DNA of 64,000 bases, taken from the IMG/VR virus record IMGVR_UViG_3300022872_000001, positions 128,171-192,170 of that record; one strand, written 5' to 3'. The stretch is from a virus. Shown here in pieces: positions 1,389 through 50,500 of the stretch (positions are counted from its first letter, which is position 1; each line of letters starts with the position of its first letter). The position numbers and the translations under genes were made by a program. A model generated the notes under the pieces. That model saw nothing but the letters and a program-made list of their open reading frames with translations. It was not told where the DNA came from and did not search any database.

Positions 1389-2039
1389 CTATTCCTTGAA
1401 TATATTTTGGGCTTTATGCAGTACCTCAAGACGTTCAGGTACTGTAGAGGGAGAACCATTTATAGTAGTAGTCATCGCAGTGAATTGGTCTGCATCAGCA
1501 ACCGCATTGAAGTGATGCGTATTCCAGAACCAACCTGCCGTTAACCAACGAGTTTCAAAATCTGTACCAACTAAGGCAGGATTTGTGTAAAGAAGGTAAT
1601 CCGAAAATAATGCCTGAGATGCCGCCTTATAATTATCTGCGAAGGTAAGATTGAAAGCGCCTTGACCGCGATATTTCCAACCATCCCCCGAGGCTACATT
1701 TCCATTACCATAGCGATTGGCATATATCATGTTGGCAAGCTTCTCTGGATTATTGATGTAATCAGGAGCGTAGGCTTTTTCGGTATTGCTCTGATCCATG
1801 GTGAAGTGGGTAGGCCAAACTTCAGGTAAACGTTCCGCCGTTCTGTAGTTCAGGTTCTCTTCCCATTTTGTGTAACCTTCTGTCTCGAAATATGATTGAG
1901 ACATGAAGTAACATAACCGACGCACGTTAGTTATGTCGAATCGAATCAACATCGGATTCAGTGTTGCTACCGCTGAATCCAAGCTTGTTGTCGGGATCGC
2001 GGAAGCAAATTGTTTTAGCTGTTGAGCTGTCACTACCAT
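1389..2039 (-). CDS. Endolysin, glycoside hydrolase family 19 (chitinase-like lysozyme)
   Basis: YFMSQSYFETEG..EENLNY, YANRYGNG...GDGWKYRGQG..NLTF.DNY motifs; SD GGAG upstream. Confidence 0.9.
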   Translation of the reverse strand: MVVTAQQLKQFASAIPTTSLDSAVATLNPMLIRFDITNVRRLCYFMSQSYFETEGYTKWEENLNYRTAERLPEVWPTHFTMDQSNTEKAYAPDYINNPEKLANMIYANRYGNGNVASGDGWKYRGQGAFNLTFADNYKAASQALFSDYLLYTNPALVGTDFETRWLTAGWFWNTHHFNAVADADQFTAMTTTINGSPSTVPERLEVLHKAQNIFKE

Positions 2040-2454
2040 CTGGAACTCCTATTACGGATAAGGTTGCTAACGTAAATCGTTGACTTGAGGATTTGATTGG
2101 ATTCACTTCATAATTGACATTAACAACCACGTTATAATTCCCAACCGGAAGGTTGTGATAGGTCAAAACAGAATAGGTATCCTGATGACGTTTTAAAAAC
2201 AAAGCAGGCGTTACCATTATCAATTGACCATCTGTATCTATGGTCGTTGAATATACATAAAACGCCTCGTTAGTAATCTTACTTAATTGAGGAACGCGGA
2301 TTACAGATGATTGACCGTAGGTTTGCGTTACCACGGCTATAGGCTGAATGCCTTCTAAGCTAGTTGGAGATTCCTGAGCCCAATATAACGCCAACATAAC
2401 AGATGACGCGGATAAGGTGGCTCCCAGTCCTAGCAGGATCTTCCCTAAGTGCAT
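1927..2454 (-). CDS. N-terminally membrane-anchored protein in the lysis cassette (paralog 2)
   Basis: Hydrophobic N-terminus (KILLGLGATLSASSVMLALYWA); beta-rich C-terminal domain resembling 2463..2963; 3' end overlaps the endolysin by 113 nt. Confidence 0.6.
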   Translation of the reverse strand: MHLGKILLGLGATLSASSVMLALYWAQESPTSLEGIQPIAVVTQTYGQSSVIRVPQLSKITNEAFYVYSTTIDTDGQLIMVTPALFLKRHQDTYSVLTYHNLPVGNYNVVVNVNYEVNPIKSSSQRFTLATLSVIGVPDGSDSSTAKTICFRDPDNKLGFSGSNTESDVDSIRHN

Positions 2455-2964: not shown

Positions 2965-3348
2965 TTAGTGCTCCGGGTTTTCAGACATAGTAGATTTTTC
3001 GACTATTGGCTGTACCGCTGGAAGCGAGGTAGGCTCCTGTGGTACTGCTGGCTGTTGTAATCCCGGAAACTTGGTTCGCAAGAAATTCTCGAACTCCACC
3101 CAGGCCCGATTACCCATTAATCCCGATACTGCAATTATGAACGGTAGTAATGTGGAATCGATGTTACCCCATTTGCAAATCCAGAAGGTCATCACACCAG
3201 TAAAACCTGAGGTGATAATTTCTATTAATGCTCTACCTATAACAAATTTCTGCATACTATTCAGGTACTTAACAAGACCTGCACAGGCTGCTACGGCTAT
3301 TACCCACACGTAGGTAACTAGTGGATAGCCAAAGGCCTCTTTTTCCAT
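2965..3348 (-). CDS. Holin, LydA-like
   Basis: About 3 TM segments with TYVWV...GLVKYL...EIITSGFTG..TFWIC......AVSGLMG.RA pattern; upstream of the endolysin. Confidence 0.75.
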   Translation of the reverse strand: MEKEAFGYPLVTYVWVIAVAACAGLVKYLNSMQKFVIGRALIEIITSGFTGVMTFWICKWGNIDSTLLPFIIAVSGLMGNRAWVEFENFLRTKFPGLQQPAVPQEPTSLPAVQPIVEKSTMSENPEH

Positions 3349-3431
3349 TAACAGGACTCCTATAAGTTTTGTACCGCTTATTCATAAGCTCTGCACTTGT
3401 ATAAAATTTGATAGTAAGCTATTGCGTACTT

Positions 3432-3440
3432 AGTAAATAA
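3432..3440 (+). promoter_or_regulatory. AGTAAATAA putative phage promoter
   Basis: Recurrent intergenic sense-strand motif, about 20 nt before ATG 3461. Confidence 0.45.
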
Positions 3441-3460
3441 GGTGTGAAAAGGAGCTTTAT

Positions 3461-3793
3461 ATGAATAACAAACCACCAACCTGCATCATTTTTCATGGTG
3501 TAGCTATGTCGGATAAGGCGAATCTTGTGTCGGCTGATCCAAGAGGTTTAGCTCTATACGTGGATATGTGTGCACGGAATAATTTGTCAATACCTGTAAC
3601 TGCCGATAAATTCAAATTCAATGTGGAAACCGAGGTCAATGAAGCCTTTAAATCGGTTAAACATAAATACAAAATCCTTCTGCACGATTGCCAACAAGAT
3701 GAGGAACTTATATCCTTTGAGGACTATTTGATTCACATGCATCTGATAGTGGATGTCGAACAAAATGATTATTACTCTTTCAGGATTAACTAA
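3461..3793 (+). CDS. Hypothetical protein
   Basis: 110 aa; SD AGGAG; TAATG overlap with the next gene. Confidence 0.6.
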   Translation: MNNKPPTCIIFHGVAMSDKANLVSADPRGLALYVDMCARNNLSIPVTADKFKFNVETEVNEAFKSVKHKYKILLHDCQQDEELISFEDYLIHMHLIVDVEQNDYYSFRIN

Positions 3794-4656
3794 TGCGTAA
3801 AACGTTGCTGTTTGTGGATGGGAATTTTTACATGAACCGAGCCTGGCACGTTATTCATACCGAAAATTCCATTGGGCGCGCACTAGGCGCCCTGATGACC
3901 TCAATGATATGCCGCGATGCCATAACGGTAAAAGCAACTCATGTTATCGTAGGTTTCGATGGTATGAGTTTTCGATACGACATTTATGATGATTACAAAC
4001 ACTCCAGAAAGAAAAAGACAAAGGGTAAATCCAAGTCGGATGAAACCACTAAGGAGATTTATACCTACATGAAAGATGTCCAGATGTACATAGGTGATGC
4101 AGGAATTCCTTTCGTGCATCCTCCCAAGCATGAGGCAGATGATGTCGGTGCAGTCTGTGCTGCTATGGGATCAAAAGACCTGCGAGTGGTTATAGCCACT
4201 AAGGATAAGGATTCAATTCAACTCCTTAATCCTAATGTGGTTATGTATAATTCAAACATCAAGTATCCTAAAAACCCGTATACGCTGGCTGATATCGCCA
4301 TTAGTAAGTACGGAGTCGAGTCTCACCAAATGGTAGATTACCAAACGCTGGTGGGAGATAAGGGAGATGATGTTCCAACCTTGTTAGGTCCTGCCAAGGT
4401 CAAAAAGATATTAGCCAAATATGGATCAATCCGAAACTGGTATAAGAAGGGACCGCGCGGCGGCAAGAGATGGCTGACGGAACACAGTGAGGAGATTTTA
4501 CGGAATCGTAAATTGGTACAACTCATCGATGACTGCATTGAGATTGATATAAACGATCTAAAAGTACCAAGGCTGACGAAGAAGGTTCAATCCTTCCCGT
4601 CAGCTTGGCACGATTACCAATCCTTTCTGTATCCCAAAAGCCGAGGTCTCTTTTAA
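3793..4656 (+). CDS. 5'-3' exonuclease / flap endonuclease (PolI N-terminal, T4 RNase H-like)
   Basis: LLFVDGN, GFDG, HEADD, TKDKD, LVGDKGDDVP..LGP.K (H3TH) motifs. Confidence 0.9.
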   Translation: MRKTLLFVDGNFYMNRAWHVIHTENSIGRALGALMTSMICRDAITVKATHVIVGFDGMSFRYDIYDDYKHSRKKKTKGKSKSDETTKEIYTYMKDVQMYIGDAGIPFVHPPKHEADDVGAVCAAMGSKDLRVVIATKDKDSIQLLNPNVVMYNSNIKYPKNPYTLADIAISKYGVESHQMVDYQTLVGDKGDDVPTLLGPAKVKKILAKYGSIRNWYKKGPRGGKRWLTEHSEEILRNRKLVQLIDDCIEIDINDLKVPRLTKKVQSFPSAWHDYQSFLYPKSRGLF

Positions 4657-5078
4657 GCGGTAGTGCTTGTAGACGCTGCCGGCGTGGCTATAACTGCAGG
4701 TGCTACTGGAGGCGTGGATGCCGCAGTAACTTCTGCCACCGTAGTTCCTGTAATCGATAGAGGGCGTGCTGTGGGTGCGGAGTCTAAGGCATCCAGTTTA
4801 GCCCTTAAATCGGACTTCCACTTATAGGTAAGCACAATGGAATCCAGAAGAGGTACCAGCTTTTGTGCATACCAATCCGCAAAGGACAAATACGGATTAC
4901 TATCGGTGAACACTGGCGTTTCATAGGTATACAACATAGAATTGCTTACAATGTTGCTACCTCTCTGCGCCTGCAGTGTGAATTGAACAGCCGTAACATA
5001 ATCCGAATTACCATTCAATGTCGTGGTATACGGAGTTACTCCTGTATAGGTAAAAGTTACATCATCCGTTGCTGCCAT
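4653..5078 (-). CDS. Small tail-fibre-associated protein
   Basis: 141 aa immediately downstream of, and overlapping, the fibre gene. Confidence 0.5.
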   Translation of the reverse strand: MAATDDVTFTYTGVTPYTTTLNGNSDYVTAVQFTLQAQRGSNIVSNSMLYTYETPVFTDSNPYLSFADWYAQKLVPLLDSIVLTYKWKSDLRAKLDALDSAPTARPLSITGTTVAEVTAASTPPVAPAVIATPAASTSTTA

Positions 5079-7863: not shown

Positions 7864-7920
7864 CTGGAAATGCTCCTTGTTGTGAATTTCATACGTACAC
7901 ATTAAATTAGAAGAGTGCTA

Positions 7921-8808
7921 ATGGCAAAGAAAACTAAAGTTCAAGATCCTAGAGTCACATCCGTGATCTCAGAACTAGGTAAGGTGTACTCGGATGGACT
8001 AAAATCTCTCCATACGTCCAAAGGTGATTTATCGCGTATGAGGTATCTACGCCCATCCCAACTTCCGTTCTGTCCTATAAACTTCTTCACCATAAATGCT
8101 AGCCAAGGCCCCTTGCGTATTCAGGATATGGAGTCTGCATTCTATACATCTATAGGTACAACCGTTCATACAGTAGTTCAAAAGTACCTTAGCCACTCTG
8201 GTAAATTTCTAGCGCGTTGGACGTGTAAGCAGTGTGGTAAGGTGCGCAAGATATCGATGAATAATCAGTGTTGCGACTTCACTATGGAGTATGATGAGGT
8301 TCTGATACGGCATAAGGGAGTGGTAGGTCACATAGACGCTATCTACCGAGACAAGTACGGGGATTATTGGATTCTGGATTTCAAAACTACCTCAGTAGCC
8401 TCTGCTTTGGCTAAATCCCGCAACCCAGGTATCTCCTATGAAGAGCAAATTGAGACCTATGCCTACTACGTAAGAGAGCAATATGGCATTACTGTTAAGG
8501 GTGTATTGCTCATGTTCATCAAACGGGATAGCCCAAAAGCTCCTATTATGTTCGGTCGCGTTCTTAAGGATATAGACTTCGATGTAGTTGCTAAGCGCAT
8601 TAAGAAATATAAGAAGATGCACCATGAAGTTTTGCATATCGAAACCTTGAAGGAAGCAAAACAACTTTTGAAGAAGTATGGTAAATGTAATAACCCTATG
8701 TGTGATACGTGTGGTTCATATCGTTCATATGAGGATGCATTTATCAATGCCTACCACAGAGGGAAAAGCATGAAATACCTACCTCTGATAAACGTTGCAA
8801 GTAAATAA
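7921..8808 (+). CDS. Cas4/RecB-like PD-(D/E)XK exonuclease
   Basis: LRPSQLPFCP, GT.VH, GHIDAI..., DFKT, QIETY motifs; C-terminal C-x4-C-x2-C. Confidence 0.8.
   Translation: MAKKTKVQDPRVTSVISELGKVYSDGLKSLHTSKGDLSRMRYLRPSQLPFCPINFFTINASQGPLRIQDMESAFYTSIGTTVHTVVQKYLSHSGKFLARWTCKQCGKVRKISMNNQCCDFTMEYDEVLIRHKGVVGHIDAIYRDKYGDYWILDFKTTSVASALAKSRNPGISYEEQIETYAYYVREQYGITVKGVLLMFIKRDSPKAPIMFGRVLKDIDFDVVAKRIKKYKKMHHEVLHIETLKEAKQLLKKYGKCNNPMCDTCGSYRSYEDAFINAYHRGKSMKYLPLINVASK
8800..8808 (+). promoter_or_regulatory. AGTAAATAA(N)GGATAC putative promoter
   Basis: Motif overlaps the upstream stop, about 27 nt before ATG 8835. Confidence 0.45.
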
Positions 8809-8834: not shown

Positions 8835-9167
8835 ATGTTATACGACCTTCCAGATAATAAAGGGACTATTGATCCTGAAGCAATTGACTACATTAGTGGT
8901 CTTGAATACAAAGCCTGCCATCCTAGAGATGGTAGTGGTTTGGAGCTTTCATTGTCATTCCGCGTTGTTATGGCTAACGGGTACGTTATCGTATTCGGTC
9001 GCCGCGTTACCAAGAGTTTGGCTGATGATGTACATGGGTATAATCATTACTTCACTAACCCGGGTCTTCAATCGGAATCGGAAGATGAAATGAGGGATGC
9101 GTATGAGGAAATTCTCGGCGAGTTTCGGAACGCTATAAAGAGTAAATGGGAGGTTACACATGGCTAA
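8835..9167 (+). CDS. Hypothetical protein
   Basis: 110 aa; SD AAGGAG. Confidence 0.6.
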   Translation: MLYDLPDNKGTIDPEAIDYISGLEYKACHPRDGSGLELSLSFRVVMANGYVIVFGRRVTKSLADDVHGYNHYFTNPGLQSESEDEMRDAYEEILGEFRNAIKSKWEVTHG

Positions 9168-9375
9168 GGTAAAAGAAATCTCCGTCACAGTATCGAAGAC
9201 CTTTCAATTCAAACAGTTTGAACCATCCCATGTATCAATCACCGAGACCTTAACCCTGGCTCCAGAGGACGATAAGGATGAGGTGAAGAAGAAAAGTTAT
9301 AAACGTTGTAGCGACACGGTAAACGAATTGCTTCTCAAAGAAGGTAAGCGTTACCAAGAAAAGAAAGGTAAATGA
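9160..9375 (+). CDS. Hypothetical protein
   Basis: 71 aa; SD GGAGG; overlaps both neighbours. Confidence 0.65.
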   Translation: MAKVKEISVTVSKTFQFKQFEPSHVSITETLTLAPEDDKDEVKKKSYKRCSDTVNELLLKEGKRYQEKKGK

Positions 9376-10022
9376 TGGTTGAAGAAAATGCATTGCACAG
9401 GAAGTACAGGCCTCAGGTATTAGAAAAGTTAATCGGTCATGAGGCAGCGGTAACACGTATGCAAGGTATGGTGGAGTCTGGTAAGATTCCAAACGCATTA
9501 CTGATTACAGGCCCGTCTGGAGTAGGCAAGACAACGTTCGCCCGAGCCATTCACCATGCAATCAATGGTTTGAAGAATCACCAAGATTATCTGGAAGTCA
9601 ACGCGGGTTCGGAACGTACTATTGATGACGTACGGAGCTGGATTCAAACATCCAAGTTTCGTCCGCAAGGTAAGCGCAGAATCTTGTTAATCGATGAAGC
9701 GCAGGGGTTACTTAGTAATGCCCAAGCTACAGATTGTTTTTCTGGCGACACTGCTGTCCTAACAGATAAAGGAGATCTCACAATGAAAGAGATTCATGAG
9801 ATTACCGATAAAGGCGAGACAATTAAAGTTGCGTCTTTTAATCACAAAACTCAAAAAACGGAATTCAAAGCTGTGGTTGCTTCCCGTAAAAAGGAAAATG
9901 CCAAACCTATGGTGAATATAGGTTTGGCAAGATGTACAGAAGACCATCCTGTGTGGGATTCGGGAATAGCATGTTATGTAGATGCTAAAGATGTAACCTC
10001 TATGTTGACTATCAAAGATTAA
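9372..10022 (+). CDS. dnaX: Clamp loader (DNA pol III gamma/tau-like AAA+) N-extein fused to split intein N-half
   Basis: LHRKYRPQ..E.LIGH, Walker A GPSGVGKTT, Walker B LIDEAQ, then intein block A CFSGDT at residue 122 and block B TEDHP; stop at 10020-10022. Confidence 0.9.
   Translation: MMVEENALHRKYRPQVLEKLIGHEAAVTRMQGMVESGKIPNALLITGPSGVGKTTFARAIHHAINGLKNHQDYLEVNAGSERTIDDVRSWIQTSKFRPQGKRRILLIDEAQGLLSNAQATDCFSGDTAVLTDKGDLTMKEIHEITDKGETIKVASFNHKTQKTEFKAVVASRKKENAKPMVNIGLARCTEDHPVWDSGIACYVDAKDVTSMLTIKD
9735..10019 (+). mobile_element. Split intein N-fragment (95 aa)
   Basis: Begins C1-F-S-G-D-T; contains block B CTEDHPVW; lacks blocks F/G. Confidence 0.88.
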
Positions 10023-10434
10023 AATCTTTTTCACCTGCTAGGAAGCCAGAGTGTAGTCTTCCTAGCCTTTTATAGTCATTTTCCCAGACGTAGATTACAT
10101 TATATCCTAATTGATTTAAGGTTAATAATCGGTGCATTGTCTTTTTATACGCCTCTTTTTTAATTGGATAATTTTTAGGATTACCGTGAAAGTAGTCTCC
10201 TAAAAATTCAAATACTGTTCTTGTTTCTTTGTGGTATCCATCTAACCTTATTTTCTTTCCGTTTAATTCAAGGGTCTTTTCTTTGGATCCGTGTCTTCCT
10301 TTGATACACACGCCATAGTATTCTTGTAATTCATTTATCCAAGCAAAACCTATAGAAGACCTGTCCTGCTTTACCTGTAGTCCTCGTCCAGTCGCATACT
10401 TGTAAATATAGTTGTTAGTAGATTTTAATTTCAT
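10012..10434 (-). CDS. Free-standing Vsr/DUF559-like (EDxHD-type) homing endonuclease
   Basis: RLDGY....RTVFEFLGDYFHGNP...TMHRLLTLNQLGYNVIYVWENDY; SD AAAGGA; AT-rich; antisense between the intein halves. Confidence 0.8.
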   Translation of the reverse strand: MKLKSTNNYIYKYATGRGLQVKQDRSSIGFAWINELQEYYGVCIKGRHGSKEKTLELNGKKIRLDGYHKETRTVFEFLGDYFHGNPKNYPIKKEAYKKTMHRLLTLNQLGYNVIYVWENDYKRLGRLHSGFLAGEKDFNL

Positions 10435-10471
10435 CTTAAATCCTTTTAATTAAGCGTTAGCTACGTAACTC

Positions 10472-10603
10472 ATGAAAACTTATCCGCATAAAATTAAGGT
10501 AGAAAAAACTACCCCTGAAGAGGTCGTTTATGACCTACAGATTGAAGACAATGAGAATTTCTTTGTAAAGGTGGAAGATGGTAGATACGGATTGGTGCAT
10601 AAT
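10472..10603 (+). mobile_element. Split intein C-fragment (44 aa)
   Basis: Ends His-Asn at 10598-10603; Cys codon at 10604; in-frame TAA at 10466 shows it is a separate ORF. Confidence 0.88.
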
Positions 10604-11359
10604 TGTTTGCTGAAGCCTTTGGAAGAACCTAGTCCGTCTACTTTATGGATTCTGTGTTCCATGGATCCGGCTAAGTTCAAAGTTGGTAAAGGTATTGCAA
10701 TCGCAAAACGTTGTACTCAGATTGTTCTTGAACCTCACACGTCGGCTGATCTGTTGAAACAAGCACGGCGTATCGCCAAAGGTGAAGGAATGAATTACGT
10801 CCTGGATGAAGAGAATAAATTACTCAAATCCGTGAGCCGTAATTGTGAAGGTGACATGCGTACCTTGGCAAACATAATGCAGGCAATGCAACAGTATTAC
10901 GATGGCATCAAAGGGAAGAAACCAAAGATGCTATCCAAGGAACACATTGGTGAGGTCATTAATTCCACTACCTCCTCAGATGAGGAACACGCCGTTAAGA
11001 TTCTTACGGCTATCTACGCAGGTTCCTTTGCAGAGGCACAGAAGGCAATTCTGAATATTCAGGATCCCTTCCAAGCTATCCAAAAGATGATGTGGACTAA
11101 TGGTTACGTTATGAACGATAAGGTTCTTAATGGAGCCAGACATCCTAAGGTATGGGGTAGCGCTGCAGGTAAGATGTTGAAAGATAACCTAGCAGCCATC
11201 AAACCAGAAGTTCAATTAGGCGCTCTAGCTATTACCAATGAAGCCTTGGTTGATCTTAAGGCAGCAGTTATGGCAACCGCAGTAGATATTCCTTTGTTGA
11301 TATCTGCCCGTGTTTTCCGTTTGATTAAAACAATTCAACTGACGTACCCAAAGAAGTAA
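10472..11359 (+). CDS. dnaX: Split intein C-half fused to clamp loader C-extein
   Basis: Block F VYDLQIEDNENFF, block G LVHN then Cys+1; extein CLLKPLEEPS (cf. NALLKTLEEP), KRC arginine finger, GDMR sensor 2. Confidence 0.9.
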   Translation: MKTYPHKIKVEKTTPEEVVYDLQIEDNENFFVKVEDGRYGLVHNCLLKPLEEPSPSTLWILCSMDPAKFKVGKGIAIAKRCTQIVLEPHTSADLLKQARRIAKGEGMNYVLDEENKLLKSVSRNCEGDMRTLANIMQAMQQYYDGIKGKKPKMLSKEHIGEVINSTTSSDEEHAVKILTAIYAGSFAEAQKAILNIQDPFQAIQKMMWTNGYVMNDKVLNGARHPKVWGSAAGKMLKDNLAAIKPEVQLGALAITNEALVDLKAAVMATAVDIPLLISARVFRLIKTIQLTYPKK

Positions 11360-11374
11360 TAAAGGAGTAAACCC

Positions 11375-11566
11375 ATGCAGTTCGTTCGATTTCAAGATGG
11401 ACTAGTGGTCATAGATTTCACGGATGTAAATATTCAAGCCAATGTGCGTATAGCTGAATGCGAGGTAGGTGACACCCGCTATGTGGGTTTAATTCCACAA
11501 GAATGCATACCCGGAACAGGTCATTGGATCTGTAGTTACTCATCTTACGAATTGATTGGAAGTTAA
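11375..11566 (+). CDS. Hypothetical protein
   Basis: 63 aa; SD AAGGAG. Confidence 0.5.
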   Translation: MQFVRFQDGLVVIDFTDVNIQANVRIAECEVGDTRYVGLIPQECIPGTGHWICSYSSYELIGS

Positions 11567-12007
11567 ATGGAACATGTACAAGTACCAGAGGGATCCGTAT
11601 CAATCCCACTCAAGGCAGGTGAACCCGAAGGACCTCAGGTTATCATACCTAACTTCGATATGTCGAAAGTGAATGTTACCAAAGTTGTTTTGCAAATGAA
11701 GCATCCTGTCCAGGTGAAACCAAACGGAACTCGGAAGCAACGGCGTACCATCCTTAAACCTTTCATGCTACGCTGGATAGGTACACTGGATACAGTAGCT
11801 GAACTGAAAACCAAGATGAGCAAGGCTAAGGCCGGTGATGTATATTACGTCAGGGAGGCAAAGCTGAACTACTTCTGGCATCCTCATCCTACGGAATACA
11901 TGTCAGCCTTTTTAGGTGTGACTTTGCGACCTACTGTGGATAATGGTGCTATCAAATCCTGTGAAGTAACCGTTCATATGGATGCTAAAATAGGAGTTGA
12001 TAGCTAA
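11567..12007 (+). CDS. Hypothetical protein
   Basis: 146 aa; directly abuts the previous stop. Confidence 0.55.
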   Translation: MEHVQVPEGSVSIPLKAGEPEGPQVIIPNFDMSKVNVTKVVLQMKHPVQVKPNGTRKQRRTILKPFMLRWIGTLDTVAELKTKMSKAKAGDVYYVREAKLNYFWHPHPTEYMSAFLGVTLRPTVDNGAIKSCEVTVHMDAKIGVDS

Positions 12008-12371
12008 CATGACAGCCAGTATCGAAGGTCTTTACGTAGGTTCTACCACTTTCAAGATTTTCGGAGAGATTCCGCCTGATAGGTTTGAGCAGGTAAGAGA
12101 GTTAGCTTCCTTGATAGGTGCGGAGTGTGGTAAATTCCTAAAACTAGACCCTCGGACGCGTTCCCATGTAGCCAAGGAAGCCAGTGATTATCTCAAAAGG
12201 ATTCACTGGCTTCCTTTGCTTGTAACGTGTGACGAGGTTAATAATCTGGTTAGCTACAAGGTGGAGAGGCGCATTGCTCCGCGTACCTTGAACATTGATA
12301 TCATGTTCGAATACAATTGCCATTTGTCAATATCCTATTCTCAAAGAGCAGATATTCACAAAAGCAATTGA
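11997..12371 (+). CDS. Hypothetical protein
   Basis: 124 aa; TTG start with SD AGGAG. Confidence 0.5.
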   Translation: MIANMTASIEGLYVGSTTFKIFGEIPPDRFEQVRELASLIGAECGKFLKLDPRTRSHVAKEASDYLKRIHWLPLLVTCDEVNNLVSYKVERRIAPRTLNIDIMFEYNCHLSISYSQRADIHKSN

Positions 12372-12393
12372 TGGATTTAAACACGGAAATAAG

Positions 12394-14682
12394 ATGAATA
12401 TCTTTAAGTCCCTTCGGTTGAAAAATACCGGACCTTTCAAACAGCAAACATTTAATTTCAAACCTGGTTTATCGGTTATTTACGGATTGAATAAGTCCAA
12501 CGCCCGCCAGTCAACTAATGCAAACGGTGCTGGTAAGAGTTTTTTCTTTAGCCAAATATCGGAAATTCTCCATGACTCTCCTGTTGTTGGTGAGAAGGCT
12601 GACAGAATTAAAAAGGGCGAACGTACTCTAACCTTCGACATCAAGGGCAAGGAAGTAGCGGTAACCCGCAAGAACACGAAACTCCTGGTTAGTGTGGATG
12701 GCAAGCCTAAAAAGTTTCGTACTCAAGCAATCTGCAAATCCTGGGTTAAGAAGTACGTACCTTTGACGGCAGAGGACTTCAATACCTATGTCCATATTGA
12801 TGCCCGTATTCCTCATCCGTTGGTTATGGGTACTACGACCGATCGTCGGCGTTTCTTCTCTTCTTTCTTCTCTTTGGATAAGCTTGATATAGAGCGTAAA
12901 CTATTCCAAGCTGAATTGTCCAAGCTATCTAAGGTACGCGCGGCCTACCGTGAATTAAAGAATGAATATAAAATCACGATTGAGGATGGTGTAGGTAAGG
13001 ACGAATATCAGGCAATGAAGGAAAAAGAGGAATTACTCACCACCAAGCTGCGTAAGTTATCCAAACAGAATGATAAGTTGCAGGAGATTGCATCTATCAT
13101 TACCTTCTACGAAGCAGCGGAAGATTCCATTAAGCGCTTAATGGATATGGTGGGAGACGAACTTACCGTAGACTCCTTCGAGAAGAAATTTGAAGATGTA
13201 AAATGGGACTACGCTAAGGATACGAAGGACTTGGAAGAGGCATTGGAATATGAGGAGTACCTTAGGGATAATAGAACTTATCTTAAGAAGTATGAATCCC
13301 TCTCTAAGGGAACGCGTAAGCTACTGGTTGAATTAGGCTATCGAAAATCTCTAAAGAAGGTAGAGAAATCCGTAGAGCGGCTAGATGAGATTAATTCAGC
13401 CTTGCATCTATTAAAAGATACCTTAAAGAAAACCAAAGCAAACAAACCTGATAAGGTTGAAGACCTTGGATATGATCGGCGTGAGATATTAGCTAAGTTA
13501 GATTCTCTAGCTCACCAGAAAGAACATATAGAGAAATTCAAGGAAGGTGTATGTGACACATGTGGGCAATCTGTAAAGGTAAGAGATCCAAAAGAGATCC
13601 AAAAAAGGATAGCAAAACTTAAGGATCGCCTAGAGAAAGCCCAAGCGTACACGGATTACAAAAATGATCTTATCGAGTATAAGCAGGCTAAAAAGGTTAT
13701 CGATAATTGCAAAAGTGAGATCGAAAAGCTGGAAGAGGAAGCTGAACCTCTGCGCAAATATGAATCCATGTACAAGGAACTACGTGGTATGCCGGAGAAG
13801 CCTGCTAAGTTCGAAGGTAAGAAATTAGAGGTTAAGGTTAAGCAGCGCATGGTAGACGAAGACAAGGATCGCCTGCACCTTCTCAAGTTCCTTAAGCCAA
13901 ACATCGAGTTGATTATCGATTACTTTGCTCTAACTAAGGAGCAGATTCAGTCAGCTAAGGATGCATCTGTCCTGCAAAGGAAGATTGAATCCATCAATGA
14001 AAAACTTTCGAGTCTCCGAGGTAAATTAGAGGTACAGAAAGCGATTCGTCAAAGAGCCAAACGGTTGAAGGCACGTTTGGTTGAGATGAAGGAGCAGCTA
14101 AAGGACGAAGTACCTTGGAAACTTCTGGTAGATGCATATAGCGAGAAGGGCGTTAAGAAATTAGCCATTCAGGCAGTCAGCCATCGATTAATGGAGATTG
14201 TGAATCGGTATGCTAAGTTGGTGTTCCCAGAGGACTATACGTTCTCCGTGGAATGGACAGCATCCCAACTGAATTTGTTGGTACACCGTAAGTATGGTAA
14301 AAGGATAGAGGTATCAGACGTGCGTAAGCTGTCTGGAGCGGAATCCAAAATCTTCACGTTGATTATGATTCTGGCTTTGCTAACGTTCGTACCGGAACGC
14401 AAACGTTCATCTTTGATGATCTGTGATGAGCCGACGGCTAATTTTTCTCCAGAGACAACCAAGGCATTTTCGGAGCTACTTCCAATTCTGAATAAGCTAA
14501 TACCAACCATAATTATCATTACACCACGCACAGGTGAACGTTACGAGAACGCTACCAACTTTACCGTCGTTAAAGAAAACGGTTATTCCAAATTAGAAAA
14601 AGGACACCCCAGTGAAATCACACGTAATACAGGCGTACGGAGTTCCCGGAGAAAGCCCGCAGAATCTCTCATGGGCGCTTGA
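12394..14682 (+). CDS. SbcC/Rad50-like ATPase (T4 gp46-like recombination nuclease subunit)
   Basis: Walker A NGAGKS, long coiled coil, zinc hook CDTCG, signature LSGAES, Walker B MICDEP; start moved to ATG 12394. Confidence 0.88.
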   Translation: MNIFKSLRLKNTGPFKQQTFNFKPGLSVIYGLNKSNARQSTNANGAGKSFFFSQISEILHDSPVVGEKADRIKKGERTLTFDIKGKEVAVTRKNTKLLVSVDGKPKKFRTQAICKSWVKKYVPLTAEDFNTYVHIDARIPHPLVMGTTTDRRRFFSSFFSLDKLDIERKLFQAELSKLSKVRAAYRELKNEYKITIEDGVGKDEYQAMKEKEELLTTKLRKLSKQNDKLQEIASIITFYEAAEDSIKRLMDMVGDELTVDSFEKKFEDVKWDYAKDTKDLEEALEYEEYLRDNRTYLKKYESLSKGTRKLLVELGYRKSLKKVEKSVERLDEINSALHLLKDTLKKTKANKPDKVEDLGYDRREILAKLDSLAHQKEHIEKFKEGVCDTCGQSVKVRDPKEIQKRIAKLKDRLEKAQAYTDYKNDLIEYKQAKKVIDNCKSEIEKLEEEAEPLRKYESMYKELRGMPEKPAKFEGKKLEVKVKQRMVDEDKDRLHLLKFLKPNIELIIDYFALTKEQIQSAKDASVLQRKIESINEKLSSLRGKLEVQKAIRQRAKRLKARLVEMKEQLKDEVPWKLLVDAYSEKGVKKLAIQAVSHRLMEIVNRYAKLVFPEDYTFSVEWTASQLNLLVHRKYGKRIEVSDVRKLSGAESKIFTLIMILALLTFVPERKRSSLMICDEPTANFSPETTKAFSELLPILNKLIPTIIIITPRTGERYENATNFTVVKENGYSKLEKGHPSEITRNTGVRSSRRKPAESLMGA

Positions 14683-44512: not shown

Positions 44513-47500
44513 TTACATCTCTTCGGAAACGTCACGCAATTTTGTGCGACGCAATTTGTTGTACATCTTATTCAGATCTTTTTCATTGGATACCTGAATG
44601 CCAGCCTCCTTGATCTTATTGGCAATAGCTATAAGCTTAGGCATGGTTAAACCAAAATACATAAGAACAGGTTCGCTCAATGCCCATTTAATTCCAGGAG
44701 CCTTCGCACGAATTGCCTTATTGGTGCCAGCTTGACCATGCGCAGGTAATACCAAGTAAGCATGACCATTTTCAAGCAACGGGTACGGCTTGATGATCTT
44801 AGGATCAGAGGAAGGTTTCTGTTCCACGCGGTAGAAGTTACGCAACTGACCTACCGAAGCAAACTTATAGATCAGATTAGGAGTTGATTTACCTTTCTGG
44901 AGCATGGTATGGACTGCACCAAAGGCTTCCTTCAATTCCTTCATCTTGGGGTCAGGCATAAAACCCTTTTCAGCCCATAGTTTCAATTGTTTTTCAAGAC
45001 GCTGCGCATTGGTAATCGGTGCGTAGTAGAACTGTTGAGCAATTGTGAAACCGAGGGATTGGAGAGCATTAGACGCTGCGGAATTCTTTTCATCAATGAA
45101 GTACGACAAACTTAGGAAACCATTGATTACAGACAGAGCTAATTCCACGGACATTGCCTTTTCCAGATCCTTCTTCTGCTTTACCTTATCCTTCTTCAGC
45201 TTATCCAATTCCTGTTGTTTCTGGAGCCTTACATTCTTGGCATCTTGAACCACAGCCACGGCAGGATGGTCAACTGGGGCATCTATCGGCAAATCACCTG
45301 TACCTTTAAGGATCTGGGTACGAATGTCATTAGTCGAAGTGTCCTTACGTGTGATAAGGAAGGTAGAGGAAAATTTGACCCAAATAAAACCACTAGGTAA
45401 ATCTACCTTAACAAAACGTGCCTTCATATCGAAAGCCCGAATAGTTCCTTCACCAAACTCCGTATGCACTACCTGACCAGATAGCTCCTCTTTTATACGC
45501 TTGAAGGATTCCTGTTCGGTAGCTTTTGCGTCCTCAGGTGATTGGTCTTCCTCTTCGTCACCTTCAAGAGCGTCTAACCGGAGATAATCATCCATGCGCA
45601 CCAAACCTAATTGGTCTGTACCATATATTTCCAAACCAGGTGTATAAGGTACGGTATGCATTAGACGAGCATCCTTAGGAACAGGTGCAATCTCAACCGT
45701 TTCAATCTTTAGGTCACCGTGTATCTCACGATATTCCTTATAGTCGTCATACAAACATTGGCGATATTCGGAGTAGGCATTACCGTAAATAGCTAAGGTA
45801 GAATTGCTATCCAAATCATCAGGATTACCCCAGTCATTATGTTCCTGAACTGTGTCCAGAGTCATCTTCATTACAGGGACATCTGGAATGGATTCATACG
45901 TCGTATTGTCTGCATTCTCGAACTTTGCATTGGCAATCAACTTAGAGATCAAACGCGATATCTTGGTAATGTCAATGGTGCGATCGGCCATGACCCAGTC
46001 GAAATAAATCTTAGTACGACGAGATTCCTTCTTGAGTTCAGGACGATTGACACGGGAGTTACCTTGCTCCAATGTACCTGGATTCCAGACAGTTTCGCAA
46101 TTGTGAACAAGTACGGGTGTTATAGGAACGTAACCACTTCTGCCTCCCTGATTGTGAGTAGTTACCGCAAAGTAATTATGGTTACCCTCTACCTCAAGAT
46201 CATATCTATACTTACCAATGGTGTTAACGTTCCTGTTACGCTGAACGTGTATAACCTTTAGATAGTGATTGTTAATAAAGGATTCTAACCTTGCCTTACC
46301 TTTACGTACTGTATCGTTGCTTGCTTCTAAGGCAGCCTTTTTCCTATTAGCCATTACCTGCTTAGATTTATTGGACAGTATCCCGTGCGATTCATAAAGA
46401 TGATTGTGTTTAGTATTGGGATGATCTATAAAATCGCATTTAGGGCATGACCAATCCCCTACACTATCATAAGGAATCACTTCAGAATTTACATCTACCT
46501 TGAACCGAGTAAAATCTCCACCGTAGGTTATTAATTTTTGACCTTTCTTTAAATTCGCAGCCAATACTTCCTCACCACCCTTAAGAATAAAAGGATGGAC
46601 TGACGTGCTTACTATGGAAGATCTTTGGCCGGTTATGCTATCCTCAACAGTGACGCTTACGTACTCATCATCAGGCTGAACAGGAGTTTTCCAACGAGTC
46701 AGAATCCTACGTTTTTCAATCCTCTTATTTTCTAAATCGTAAGATAGTACGTATTTAATATCTGGATTATCTACAATCTCCTTAATGGTAAGGGATTTAT
46801 CGTAATCAATAAGAACTGGGGTTTGACCTGGGAAGCATCTAACCAACCGTGAAGCATGTTGCAAATTCAAACCAGTATTCATGGATTGCTCAACACCAAT
46901 CATGATCTGCTTGGATTCATCATGTTCAAATGCAGCGCCTGCCTCAATCTTATCAGCCGCAACATAAAGAATTGCTTTAGCTTTTAAATCATTAGGCAAT
47001 AGATTATAGATCTCTTCGGCGGAGGCAGTGTAATTAGTAAATACCAAAACTTTACCAGGTATTTGCTGCTCTATATGCTCTCGAATGAGCTCATGAATCT
47101 TGTGTACCTTAGGACTTATACGATCTTCGCCCTTAAGAACTTTATCCCCTAATTCATCACTAGTAGGAGCAGTAATGAATTGTTCCAACCGAGCAAGGTA
47201 AGGACCTAAGATACCTGCCAAGTCTTCATCTGCATCCTCGTCATCTGCGCTTTCATCACCAGGATCTTCCTCCCCTTCACCCTTTGGTTCAACCTTGGAT
47301 TTACCTCCATTAATGAATTCAGCCAAACGCGGAGAGGTCTTGGCCGCTTCTTTAATGGCTTCAATGGTGCGCTCAAAGAGAAGATTATAGATTTCTCGTT
47401 GTGCTTCCGTCAGGTCAACCCGATGGAATTTCTCAATTGCTTGCGGCAATAACGCTGCCCATTCCTTACGCATGGCTCCTGCAACTACTACCCGGGTCTT

Positions 47501-50500
47501 GATGATTTCCGAGATTTGTTGCTGTGCACCTGGTTTCCATTTCAGTACACGATTACCACTTACCTTTTCACCAAAGCGCTCATTAAAGGCGTCCCGGGAT
47601 CCAAAGAGAGTAGGATCTAGCATAGCAATCTGCAAAGCCAGGTCAGATGGCGAATCGTGAGCCATAGTACCAGACGCCAAGCGTTTCTTAGGAATATCTG
47701 CAATTAAAGCCATACAAGCCTTAGTACGGGCTGAATCATTTTTTACAGAATTGTGAACTAAACCTCCATTTACAGAGAATGACGGATGTCCGTCAATCTG
47801 GAGGTTATAAACTTTCGCACTTCCTTCGGACGATTGATAACTGCTTTGTTCGATACGCTTAACACTGTCCACCCTAAGGAATTTAGAAGTTTCTTCTTTT
47901 TTACATCTAAATGCCGTCGAGTTGACATATAGTGGGATGAGCCGTTCACTTCCAAGGCTAACCTTAGTTTCGGCCACGCAAAGTCCACTTTGTAGCAAGG
48001 AGGATACCCGGAGTCCCTTGGCTGTTTCGTAGGTATGGCCAGCTGAAATGTCGCTTTCGGAAACATGTTCATCACTAACTGTTCGCAAGGACTTATCGTC
48101 CCGTTGCCTCCTCGTTTCACAAATCCGTGACCTATTGCTAACAACGTCGAAGATACTTTCGCACGAGTCTTGGGATCCTTCATAGGATTGTTTACCTTCA
48201 TATACTGAGAGTTCCGAGCTCGACCTTCCTTGTAAATCTCTGGATTTTTCTTCTCTTTCTTCTTCTTGGTTTCCATACCCTTCGCATAATTCTCCGAGGT
48301 GTGAATCTTTGCTAGAATTTTTGGCTGAGACATCCTCCATTTCGCTGAGCAAGATGTCCCGCAGAACCTTTGATTCTTCGTTTTTAAATTCTTTTGAACA
48401 AATTCCTGTCGGCAATACTTGCACTTCATTTAATAACTCCTCAGCATAAATCTGACATACGATCTCATCACCTACAACCAGATCCTTAGCAAATATCCAT
48501 CCGCGTTTGGTAAAGAAAGGGTGTTTAGTAGTAGCAGATATAATCTTACCATTATATGCCACTTCAATAATATCCGTATTTAAGGGGAGTGCATGCGTTG
48601 CCTGCACCTTAGAAATACCTATAGCCGAATATATGGAATCCCCGACGTTGATATCCTCGATCTTACGAATTCCTGAGGGAGTGTCGACCTCTGTACCTGC
48701 TAAAAAACAATGACTCTCATCGAGCATCGAATAGCCGAATTTGAATTGACGTAAAAATTCAATAATCGGATAAACGTTTACATTGGTAGTACCATAACAT
48801 ACCTGTTGTTGCCTGTAACGCAGAACATCATAATCAGCAATAACAACGGTGTTACGAGGAGCTGACTGCAAGATTTTACCCAAACGCTCTAAACCATTCT
48901 TACGAACGGTATAGGTATTGATAGGAATGGCATTCAACTTACCATCGGTGAAGAATACGATTTCCTTAACGTACTGTGCAACCAGATGCGGAGGACACAG
49001 GATCAGGTAAGGTTCTGAGCGGTTGGCTTTAATCTCGTATAGGATATCGGTAATGGTTAATACCGATTTACCCCCACCTGCTTGAACAGGAAGAATTGCG
49101 AAGTCTGGCGAATCTTTCAATAGGTTACGCACCTTCTTTTGGTGCGGTAACATAATGTTCTCTTTGCGGAACAATGGAATAGATGGAATTTCCCAAGCGG
49201 CATCTACGGCTTGATTAATGGCTGCCTTACGAATTGTCTCATCCACAGCTTGGGTCTCTGGAAACTTAGGACCATACTTAGCAATGATCGTTAACCATGC
49301 CAAGTTAGAGGCAACGTGGGAAACCGAATACCTGGCATACACAGAATCCAACTGCGCGATAATCGCAGCTTGGGCATTTACACACCAGCGGGACAGACAC
49401 TGAAAAGCAGGATATTCCGAGTGCGGAGTAATATGGGTAAGATTCAGGATCGGATCCTCATCCATACGATCAATTACAGCTTTAACTGTGGCGAGATATT
49501 CGGTGAGACCATGAGTAGACGCTTTGATACTCTCGTAGGCTACCGGATCGAAAGCTTTAATAGCCTGGAGTTCGGCTTCGGTAGGTTCAACCGATTTACC
49601 AATACCTGCTGTTTCTGCCATCGGCAGGAAACGAGTAAACAGGGCAACAATATCCGTGTCACGCTTCATCATATTGATGATGTGAGGAGCCTGTGCTTTC
49701 TTGTACCTCACCAAGTCCAGTACCTTTAGCATACCTGTGGTCTGGGTGAATGCATACTTATTATTCACCCAATCGATCAGTACTGGCACGTTACGCGGTA
49801 AATGAGTTTCTTTGCTCAGAGTCTCCATGGTGCCCGTAGGATCCAAACGATGCAAGGCAAAGGAGTCATCGCCCTCGTATGAACCTGCTAAGCTAAACAG
49901 GTTCTCGTACTTACTGGTATTATCCAGTTTGTAGGGTAAATAAATAGGCATACCTGCAGGATCTATGGATAGGCCATACTCGTCTACCCGTGCGTCTTCC
50001 GACTCTACGGGAGGCAAGGTACGTGCAATCTTAGAGATTGGAAACGAAGACAGAGGATTGGAACCTTGTTGACCAAAACCAGAAGTAGTCCACTGTAACA
50101 TTAACGGATAGAGATCGATATTACGGATTTCCATCCAGTTAGTTGTGGTAAGCTGCTCTGCTTCTGCTTTGGTAATCTTAAAGGTAGCGAAGAAGACACC
50201 TCTATTAGCAGAGTGTTCAAAGGTGACGCTAACAAGGCAACTTTGGAGCGCAGCCAAACCTGCCGCATTCACATTACCCATTGAAGCTATTACCTTCTCC
50301 TTGGTGTAATGTACAGCACCTAAGGTATCAGGTGTTGACGGATTCTGAACGGTCTTTTCCATCAGATTATCAATTCCGAATTTATCCTGATCAGGATTAT
50401 CTTCAGACAGAACTCCTCGCGCCAACATTGCGGCAAGATTTTCTAAACCACCTGCGATGTTGTCGCTATTAACACTCCATAGTGGAACGGATACGGTAAA

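Follow-up and report, generated by a model that had tools for sequence, protein, structure and literature searches.

A phage clamp-loader gene fractured by a predicted split intein, with an internally deleted endonuclease gene in antisense between its halves

Background

Can a clamp-loader gene that is broken into two reading frames, with another gene on the opposite strand between the pieces, still give rise to a single protein? The question is raised by a locus in a stretch of viral DNA of 64,000 nucleotides, referred to here as the window, which comprises positions 128,171 to 192,170 of IMG/VR record IMGVR_UViG_3300022872_000001. This record has a length of 192 kb and is estimated to be 82% complete. 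At the locus the gene for a DNA polymerase clamp loader is divided between two open reading frames (ORFs), ORF1 and ORF3. The first ends in the N-terminal part of an intein (IntN) and the second begins with the C-terminal part (IntC); between them an endonuclease gene, ORF2, lies on the opposite strand (Table 1). We consider it quite probable that the locus represents the fractured clamp-loader gene of an uncultured jumbo phage from peat, related to phiRSL1, that its two products are joined by protein trans-splicing, and that the antisense ORF is the deleted descendant of a homing endonuclease. The halves would be translated separately, and the 95-amino acid (aa) IntN and the 44-aa IntC would associate into a class 1 Hint domain. 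The product of trans-splicing would be an AAA+ clamp-loader subunit of 372 aa, joined at NAQATD-CLLKPLEEP.

Results and discussion

Layout of the locus

ORF1 and ORF2 converge and overlap by 11 nt, 3' end against 3' end, while the start of ORF3 is 37 nt from the start of ORF2. The coordinates, strands, overlap and lengths of the two intein parts given in a preliminary description of this DNA were all exact on re-reading. ORF1 and ORF3 do not share a frame, and 9 to 14 stop codons are present in every plus-strand frame between 10020 and 10474. The DNA itself thus encodes the intein in two pieces, and no contiguous reading is available.

The source is a metagenome assembly, and the break could in principle be an assembly artefact, or the interruption could be removed as an RNA intron. 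The data leave next to no room for either explanation. At least half of the stretch is present in 14 peat-metagenome runs, and the endonuclease protein is called on 5 contigs. Both junctions of the endonuclease gene (IntN stop to endonuclease 3' end, and endonuclease 5' end to IntC start) are bridged, with 0 differences and without a joint, by contigs of four runs, three of them RNA libraries and the fourth a further DNA run, and the same layout occurs in a second phage contig, described below. The RNA-library evidence consists of assembled contigs; it supports the layout and says nothing on transcription, strand or level. The preliminary description would have been overturned by a contiguous cis intein in the assembly; what the independent contigs of the four runs contain is the split layout, and a joined form of the locus was not seen among the contigs of three peat metatranscriptome runs. 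With respect to an intron, no intron or other RNA family was found by Rfam in 9000-11800, and intein motifs lie exactly at both borders of the interruption. The region has no megablast match among phage records.

The host gene

The identity of the host gene is clear from profile searches. PHROG family 5846 (clamp loader of DNA polymerase) matches both ORFs: residues 5-118 of ORF1 correspond to profile positions 3-111 (E 7e-32) and residues 44-287 of ORF3 to positions 112-356 (E 1.5e-29). The break in the profile falls between the adjacent positions 111 and 112, and together the two ORFs cover positions 3-356 of 380. The NCBIfam model TIGR02397 (dnaX_nterm) and RFC small-subunit models match the N-extein, and the C-extein corresponds to TIGR02397 positions 134-288. 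A search of PDB with the family profile retrieved structures of the RFC small subunit (7e-29), of E. coli gamma/tau (gamma, 7e-27) and of T4 gp44. These matches confirm the DnaX-type host that had been proposed, as a clamp loader of the DnaX/RFC type.

In a by-eye reading of the sequence, the N-extein contains the Walker A (GPSGVGKT) and Walker B (LLIDEAQ) motifs, and the C-extein contains sensor 1, the Arg finger and sensor 2 of the AAA+ module together with the C-terminal domain. Because the Walker motifs are in one part and the sensors and Arg finger in the other, the product must be joined or at least assembled. The nearest named relatives, ORF166 of Ralstonia phage phiRSL1 and its counterparts in Achromobacter phage Motura and Burkholderia phage BCSR5, are uninterrupted proteins of 363-365 aa that align collinearly and without a gap across the junction of N-extein and C-extein. 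The C-extein is 43-56% identical to intein-less phage clamp loaders. When the exteins are joined, 11 residues separate DExQ from LLKPLEE, the spacing found in 57 of 59 intein-less alleles. The collinear alignment and the preserved spacing bear out the earlier proposal that the exteins together restore the AAA+ module.

A broken gene that is being lost, in a phage that uses another clamp loader, would be compatible with a record that is 82% complete and with a C-half that lacks a Shine-Dalgarno (SD) sequence. We regard such loss as very improbable, as each half is an open frame of full length in which all motifs of the family are present and the profile scores are strong, the same organisation is kept in 14 split alleles, and the 192-kb record has no clamp-loader match other than the two halves.

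The intein halves

IntN comprises residues 122-216 of ORF1 and begins with CFSGDT, Cys1 being Cys122 of ORF1. Its block B, T68-E-D-H71, is aligned to RCTPDHPV of NrdJ-1, and the NrdJ-1 split intein (8ubs) is the closest solved relative, with an E value of 2.6e-5 over 84 residues. Cys1 and the Thr and His of the TxxH motif are invariant across 8 N-halves, all of which end 24-27 residues past TxxH. IntC is made up of residues 1-44 of ORF3, in which block F and then block G are followed directly by Cys+1. TIGR01443 (intein C-terminal region) matches ORF3 residues 19-45 with 21.1 bits against a cut-off of 15.6, and ten positions are invariant in 11 C-halves (V19, Y20, D21, N27, E28, N29, F31, H43, N44 and C45). 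The start of IntC aligns with that of the NrdJ-1 IntC; all alternative in-frame starts for ORF3 would lose block F. Given the matches to phrog_5846, TIGR01443 and NrdJ-1, the locus is not a chance arrangement.

The locus has the features of a class 1 split intein: Cys1, TxxH, an HN ending, Cys+1, separate frames, and a host protein that is collinear with its relatives after removal of the intein. The split intein with a Cys/Cys pair that was described earlier is thus complete, with every class 1 residue in place, and these residues are invariant across the related halves. We infer that the two halves would be trans-spliced.

Alleles at the insertion site

The preliminary description had called for a check of related phages for intact or cis alleles, and both were found at the same site. 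Protein searches yielded further split alleles, namely 7 N-halves (219-223 aa) and a dozen C-halves (274-304 aa), and three cis alleles of 468-511 aa with a contiguous mini-intein of 145-146 aa. In all, 14 split alleles are scattered among about a hundred (98) intein-less ones, and the locus belongs to a family that recurs in metagenomes. A quick IQ-TREE phylogeny of the C-exteins (LG+G4; rows of <200 residues excluded) also has the intein-bearing alleles scattered and requires no fewer than 12 changes of state, of which 9 are imposed by branches with good support. The sister alleles of the window's gene, P0152 and P0153, are intein-less and 62% identical to it (support 100).

The related exteins are 40-56% identical, while the splicing residues are invariant; this pattern of conservation indicates that selection acts on the splicing chemistry. 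It also bears on whether a peptide bond is made at all. The halves might assemble non-covalently, the intein pieces acting as an affinity handle, for fragmented phage enzymes can function as assembled pieces; NrdA of phage Aeh1 is reported to be such an enzyme, split by an endonuclease and without an intein (PMC3045599). Invariance of Cys1, TxxH, the terminal Asn and Cys+1 in all split and cis alleles would be unexpected for binding alone, however, and the cis alleles need splicing for any product. Non-covalent assembly is accordingly an improbable explanation, and trans-splicing is favoured, given how strictly the splicing residues are conserved.

The +1 position is a further point of comparison. 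The junction residue in the window is Cys, where most intein-less alleles carry Ala. Five intein-less alleles have Cys (P0194, P0198, P0217, P0223 and P0224), and three of the five are sister to split alleles; in one such sister the N-extein sequence at the junction is the same as in an N-half. A Cys at this position in an intein-less gene fits either precise loss of an intein or a Cys-bearing target. It would also fit a homing cycle in which inteins are gained and lost. The window's intein is 32-62% identical to the inteins of other alleles and its exteins are 40-49% identical to theirs, a comparison that gives no indication that the intein was recently transferred horizontally.

The antisense endonuclease

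A full HMMER search with the antisense ORF gave 2811 homologues at E<=0.001, almost all of them 250-600 aa long and matching at their C-terminus; their N-terminal parts contain DUF723/DUF4379 treble-clef zinc fingers, which are absent from the window's copy. Across an alignment of 40 sequences the columns of D65, E76, D80, H83, E118 and D120 are invariant or >=90% conserved, and the window protein keeps all of the invariant or near-invariant columns of the family. Pfam produced a weak match to REase_MTES_1575 alone, and no sequence match in PDB was found with either the single sequence or the family profile.

A single-sequence AlphaFold2 (AF2) prediction of the endonuclease was useless, with a pLDDT (predicted local distance difference test) score of 32.7. 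The alignment-based model, which we used, has a pLDDT of 79.9 with residues 1-23 disordered. Foldseek placed the catalytic domain of I-Bth0305I (3r3p, probability 0.99) and Vsr (1cw0, 0.98, and 1vsr) at ranks 2-5. The VIA-align Z scores of 8.1 (1cw0) and 7.3 (3r3p) are middling and tied with those of other restriction-endonuclease-like folds. Confidence in a Vsr-like restriction-endonuclease fold, as predicted by the model, is therefore moderate. Fold and conserved motif together place the protein among the EDxHD/Vsr-like homing endonucleases (Dassa 2009, Taylor 2011). The earlier identification of a Vsr-like endonuclease thus stands as to the family, given the conserved catalytic columns and the fold matches to 3r3p and 1cw0. 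A normal free-standing enzyme it is not, for the protein has undergone an internal deletion and is without a DNA-binding region.

The deletion is apparent from a comparison with the 573-aa homologue P0002. Residues 2-23 of the window protein correspond to residues 3-24 of P0002 (68% identity), and residues 24-140 to its last 117 residues. With both ends matched in this way, the gene is an in-frame internal-deletion derivative in which about 430 residues of DNA-binding modules have been lost. The N-terminal DNA-binding region is absent and 23 disordered residues alone precede the nuclease domain, so that the enzyme may no longer home. In its clade (P0002-P0013 and their cluster members) the proteins fall into about three sizes, of 550-613 aa, 257-272 aa with one DUF723, and 112-140 aa; some of the short members are possibly cut off by contig ends.

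These observations suggest a history for the element. A homing endonuclease of about 570 aa, of the EDxHD/Vsr-like type, would have entered a mini-intein in reverse orientation and thereby split it, and the resulting endonuclease/intein element would have spread among phiRSL1-like phages. In the lineage of the window an in-frame deletion would then have removed the zinc-finger DNA-binding region, leaving the start codon, the SD sequence and the catalytic domain, and decay would have set in. To judge from its sequence, the most likely interpretation of the window endonuclease is a homing enzyme in decay; at best its activity would be weakened.

The 140-aa protein could instead be an active minimal homing enzyme, a dimer of catalytic domains that cuts intein-less alleles and spreads the split intein. 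All catalytic columns are kept, the gene has its own SD sequence and ATG, the catalytic domain is modelled with confidence and the deletion is in frame. In I-Bth0305I, moreover, most of the target specificity resides in the nuclease-domain dimer, the contacts of the N-terminal region being mainly unspecific (PMC3239194), and for this reason the short form could still be active. The nearest relatives (257-613 aa), on the other hand, each have at least one zinc-finger module; the identities of inteins and exteins cited above give no sign of recent transfer; and the sister alleles, at only 62% identity, are intein-less. On balance an active minimal enzyme is possible but doubtful.

A second locus with the same order

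The antisense order is also present in L047, an independent viral contig of 119 kb (Table 1). There the endonuclease is full-length (566 aa) and 50% identical to that of the window, and the 3' ends of IntN and endonuclease share 17 nt. Downstream, L047, the window and phiRSL1 have the same SbcC-like gene. Scans of viral contigs that used P0002 or the cis allele P0162 as query revealed no such locus, and a degenerate DNA pattern for HN-CLLKPLEEP, applied across viral contigs, identified the L047 contig alone. Five more endonuclease relatives (124-579 aa) probably lie on contigs of other split halves, to judge from contigs that agree in length and source: P0158 with P0004 (21,506 nt), P0225 with P0005 (20,371), P0186 with P0006 (12,748), P0277 with P0390 (13,546) and P0276 with P0013 (1,601).

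Table 1. Features of the fractured clamp-loader locus in the window and of the corresponding locus in L047
Feature	Position	Strand	Remarks
ORF1	9372-10022	+	216 aa; clamp-loader N-part + IntN; stop TAA 10020-10022
N-extein (121 aa, ends NAQATD)	9372..9734	+	phrog_5846, TIGR02397, RFC small-subunit models
IntN (95 aa + TAA)	9735..10022	+	Cys1 TGT 9735-9737, block B, NrdJ-1 match
ORF2, antisense endonuclease	10012-10434	-	140 aa; stop codon 10012-10014
Endonuclease catalytic domain, residues 24-140	10015..10365	-	homologues, AF2 model, Foldseek, VIA
Endonuclease N-terminal remnant, residues 1-23	10366..10434	-	match to P0002 N-terminus
Divergent spacer, 37 nt	10435..10471	.	contains SD of endonuclease, none for ATG 10472
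ORF3	10472-11359	+	295 aa; IntC + clamp-loader C-part
IntC (44 aa)	10472..10603	+	block F VYDLQIEDNENFF, block G LVHN; TIGR01443
C-extein (251 aa + stop)	10604..11359	+	Cys+1 (10604-10606), LLKPLEEP; phrog_5846, TIGR02397
12-bp perfect hairpin + T-run	9899..9929	-	within IntN coding sequence; fold energy vs shuffles
L047 N-extein + IntN	1584-2255	+	same layout as window
L047 endonuclease, 566 aa	2239-3939	-	full-length, 50% identical to window's
L047 IntC + C-extein	3908-4804	+	same layout as window

Expression signals

The endonuclease gene has an SD sequence (AAGGA, minus strand, 10441-10445) 6 nt before its ATG at 10434. No SD-like motif was seen on reading the sequence before ATG 10472, and the caveat attached to this start in the preliminary description holds; in a crude survey about a third of the window's ORFs of at least 120 aa were likewise without an SD-like match. 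The leader of ATG 10472 is A/U-rich and unstructured (z -0.55). No structure beyond that of shuffled controls was found in the 10435..10471 spacer, and a hairpin sequestering the ribosome-binding site of the endonuclease, of the 5' type reported by Dassa and coworkers, was considered and is unsupported (z -0.30).

A strong hairpin does occur at 9899-9929, 83 nt past the endonuclease stop. Its Delta-G is -21.2 kcal/mol (z -4.96; 0 of 200 shuffles were as stable) and its T-run is on the minus strand only, making it a candidate one-way terminator for the antisense gene. In L047 the hairpin is located within the last codons of the endonuclease, so a conserved terminator is unsupported. Promoter-like and terminator-like sites are no commoner in the window and L047 than in shuffled sequence.

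The 3' ends overlap at both loci and the window has the one-way hairpin within IntN, and the reverse orientation might therefore be functional, convergent transcription making expression of nuclease and clamp loader exclude or time each other. This we consider unlikely; if true, convergent transcription would be a regulatory layer undescribed for fractured genes.

Weight of the evidence

Several points weigh against the interpretation as a trans-spliced clamp loader with a decaying antisense endonuclease. Splicing is a prediction from sequence. The start codon of the C-half, ATG 10472, lacks an SD sequence. A second clamp loader may be encoded in the part of the genome outside the 82% complete record. 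The strand of the endonuclease is established at two loci only, the window and L047. Finally, "decaying" is a judgement: with its catalytic residues and SD sequence kept, the short endonuclease could be active.

Significance

The locus should be of value to specialists on inteins and on homing endonucleases. It adds a new host to the fractured genes, a phage clamp loader, with the insertion site 11 residues past Walker B. It also adds a new geometry, in which an antisense homing endonuclease lies between the halves; a free-standing endonuclease would accordingly be able to split a mini-intein in either orientation. At this one site there is a series of alleles that are empty, empty with a Cys footprint, occupied by a contiguous mini-intein, split with a full-length antisense endonuclease, and split with a deleted one, so that gain, splitting and decay within the homing cycle can be compared directly. 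More than a dozen divergent natural Cys1/Cys+1 pairs, with an IntN of 95-100 aa and an IntC of 38-57 aa, belong to the family. They are relatives of the fast NrdJ-1/gp41 group and candidate orthogonal tools for protein ligation.

Neighbouring genes and other intein loci

The neighbourhood of the clamp loader follows the gene order of phiRSL1. Upstream, at 7915-8808 (+), a 297-aa Cys-rich protein is encoded in the position of RSL1 ORF170, which is annotated as CRISPR/Cas-associated. Downstream, at 12295-14682 (+), is the gene for a 795-aa SbcC-like ATPase (compare RSL1 ORF161 and L047 4808-7054).

The window has more intein matches, at 46166-46813 (-) and 47750-47878 (-) in one 2091-aa frame; one of these is above the Pfam cut-off. 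A further match upstream of the window, G000:C1:86945-87358 (+), is in an 870-aa frame. Related loci in other host genes were seen on other viral contigs. At L010:2225-4861 an ATP-dependent DNA ligase gene is fractured, with the N-part breaking at SRKLDG-CLSEDT; next on the same strand comes a 295-aa Vsr-like endonuclease, and after it an IntC that ends LVHN before Cys and shares YDLQIEDNENFF with the window's IntC. At L017:2466-5070 a P-loop ATPase is broken directly after GTGK by CVDGNT, and a 327-aa protein with the same nuclease domain is encoded on the same strand. L040, L042, L043, L044 and L052 (about 3000-4100 in each) have related inteins in other host genes, with HNH-type endonuclease ORFs on the same strand in another frame, extending into the IntC region; this layout resembles the out-of-frame architectures of a 2025 preprint (bioRxiv 10.1101/2025.01.02.630785).

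Comparison with known systems

The solved NrdJ-1 split intein (8ubs) shares the RCT-x-DHPV block B with IntN and has the same IntC start. It differs in its host protein and insertion site; identity is probably low, and the +1 residue of the window's intein is Cys. The +1 residue of NrdJ-1 is Ser.

The fractured genes described by Dassa et al. (2009) consist of three ORFs on one strand, the 3' end of the endonuclease gene overlapping IntC and a 5' hairpin being usual (PMC2677866). Their hosts are gp41, IMPDH, DnaE, NrdA, NrdJ, ligase and terminase, with gp41-1, NrdJ-1, IMPDH-1 and NrdA-2 as examples (PMC2677866). The present locus is like these in that two host ORFs are retained in the original order, orientation and locus with an endonuclease gene between the intein halves; the lengths of the halves are similar (88-105 and 33-54 aa) and the split is again between blocks B and F. 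It is unlike them in that the endonuclease gene is antisense, overlaps the 3' end of IntN and is 37 nt from IntC; the host is a clamp loader, a 5' hairpin is unsupported and the endonuclease is internally deleted.

The catalytic domain resembles that of I-Bth0305I in fold and motif (VIA Z 7.3 over 89/97 residues). I-Bth0305I, the founding EDxHD homing endonuclease, is intron-encoded and has an N-terminal NUMOD/HTH region (3r3p; PMC3239194). The relatives of the window enzyme have DUF723/DUF4379 zinc fingers in its place, and the window copy has none.

Clamp-loader inteins listed by Novikova et al. (2016) are contiguous only, in cyanobacterial DnaX and the archaeal RFC small subunit, and their survey includes none that is split or from a phage (PMC4760082). 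These cellular inteins likewise lie in the AAA+ module near Walker B, but they are contiguous and in cellular genomes, whereas the one described here is split and in a phage. In the open-access literature searched, we found no report of a phage clamp loader with a split intein, nor of an antisense endonuclease between split-intein halves.

Antisense endonucleases within inteins are, in contrast, already on record. The 2025 preprint describes antisense VSR-like endonucleases in contiguous inteins of actinobacteriophages, and predicts split or mini relics of such elements without a survey (bioRxiv 10.1101/2025.01.02.630785). It also mentions, citing Gorbalenya 1998, that the dnaX intein of Synechocystis contains a LAGLIDADG gene in antisense. 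The window shares with the preprint's elements an EDxHD-type, VSR-like enzyme, a strand opposite to that of the intein, and the canonical insertion point of the endonuclease. Those inteins are contiguous and their sense frame is open through the endonuclease, whereas here the sense frames are closed by 9-14 stops and the intein is split. The earlier suggestion of novelty therefore stands for the host gene and for the combination of split intein and antisense gene, neither of which we found in print, and does not extend to antisense Vsr-like endonucleases in inteins as such. Without introducing a new principle, the locus extends the fractured-gene design to a phage clamp loader and to an endonuclease gene on the opposite strand.

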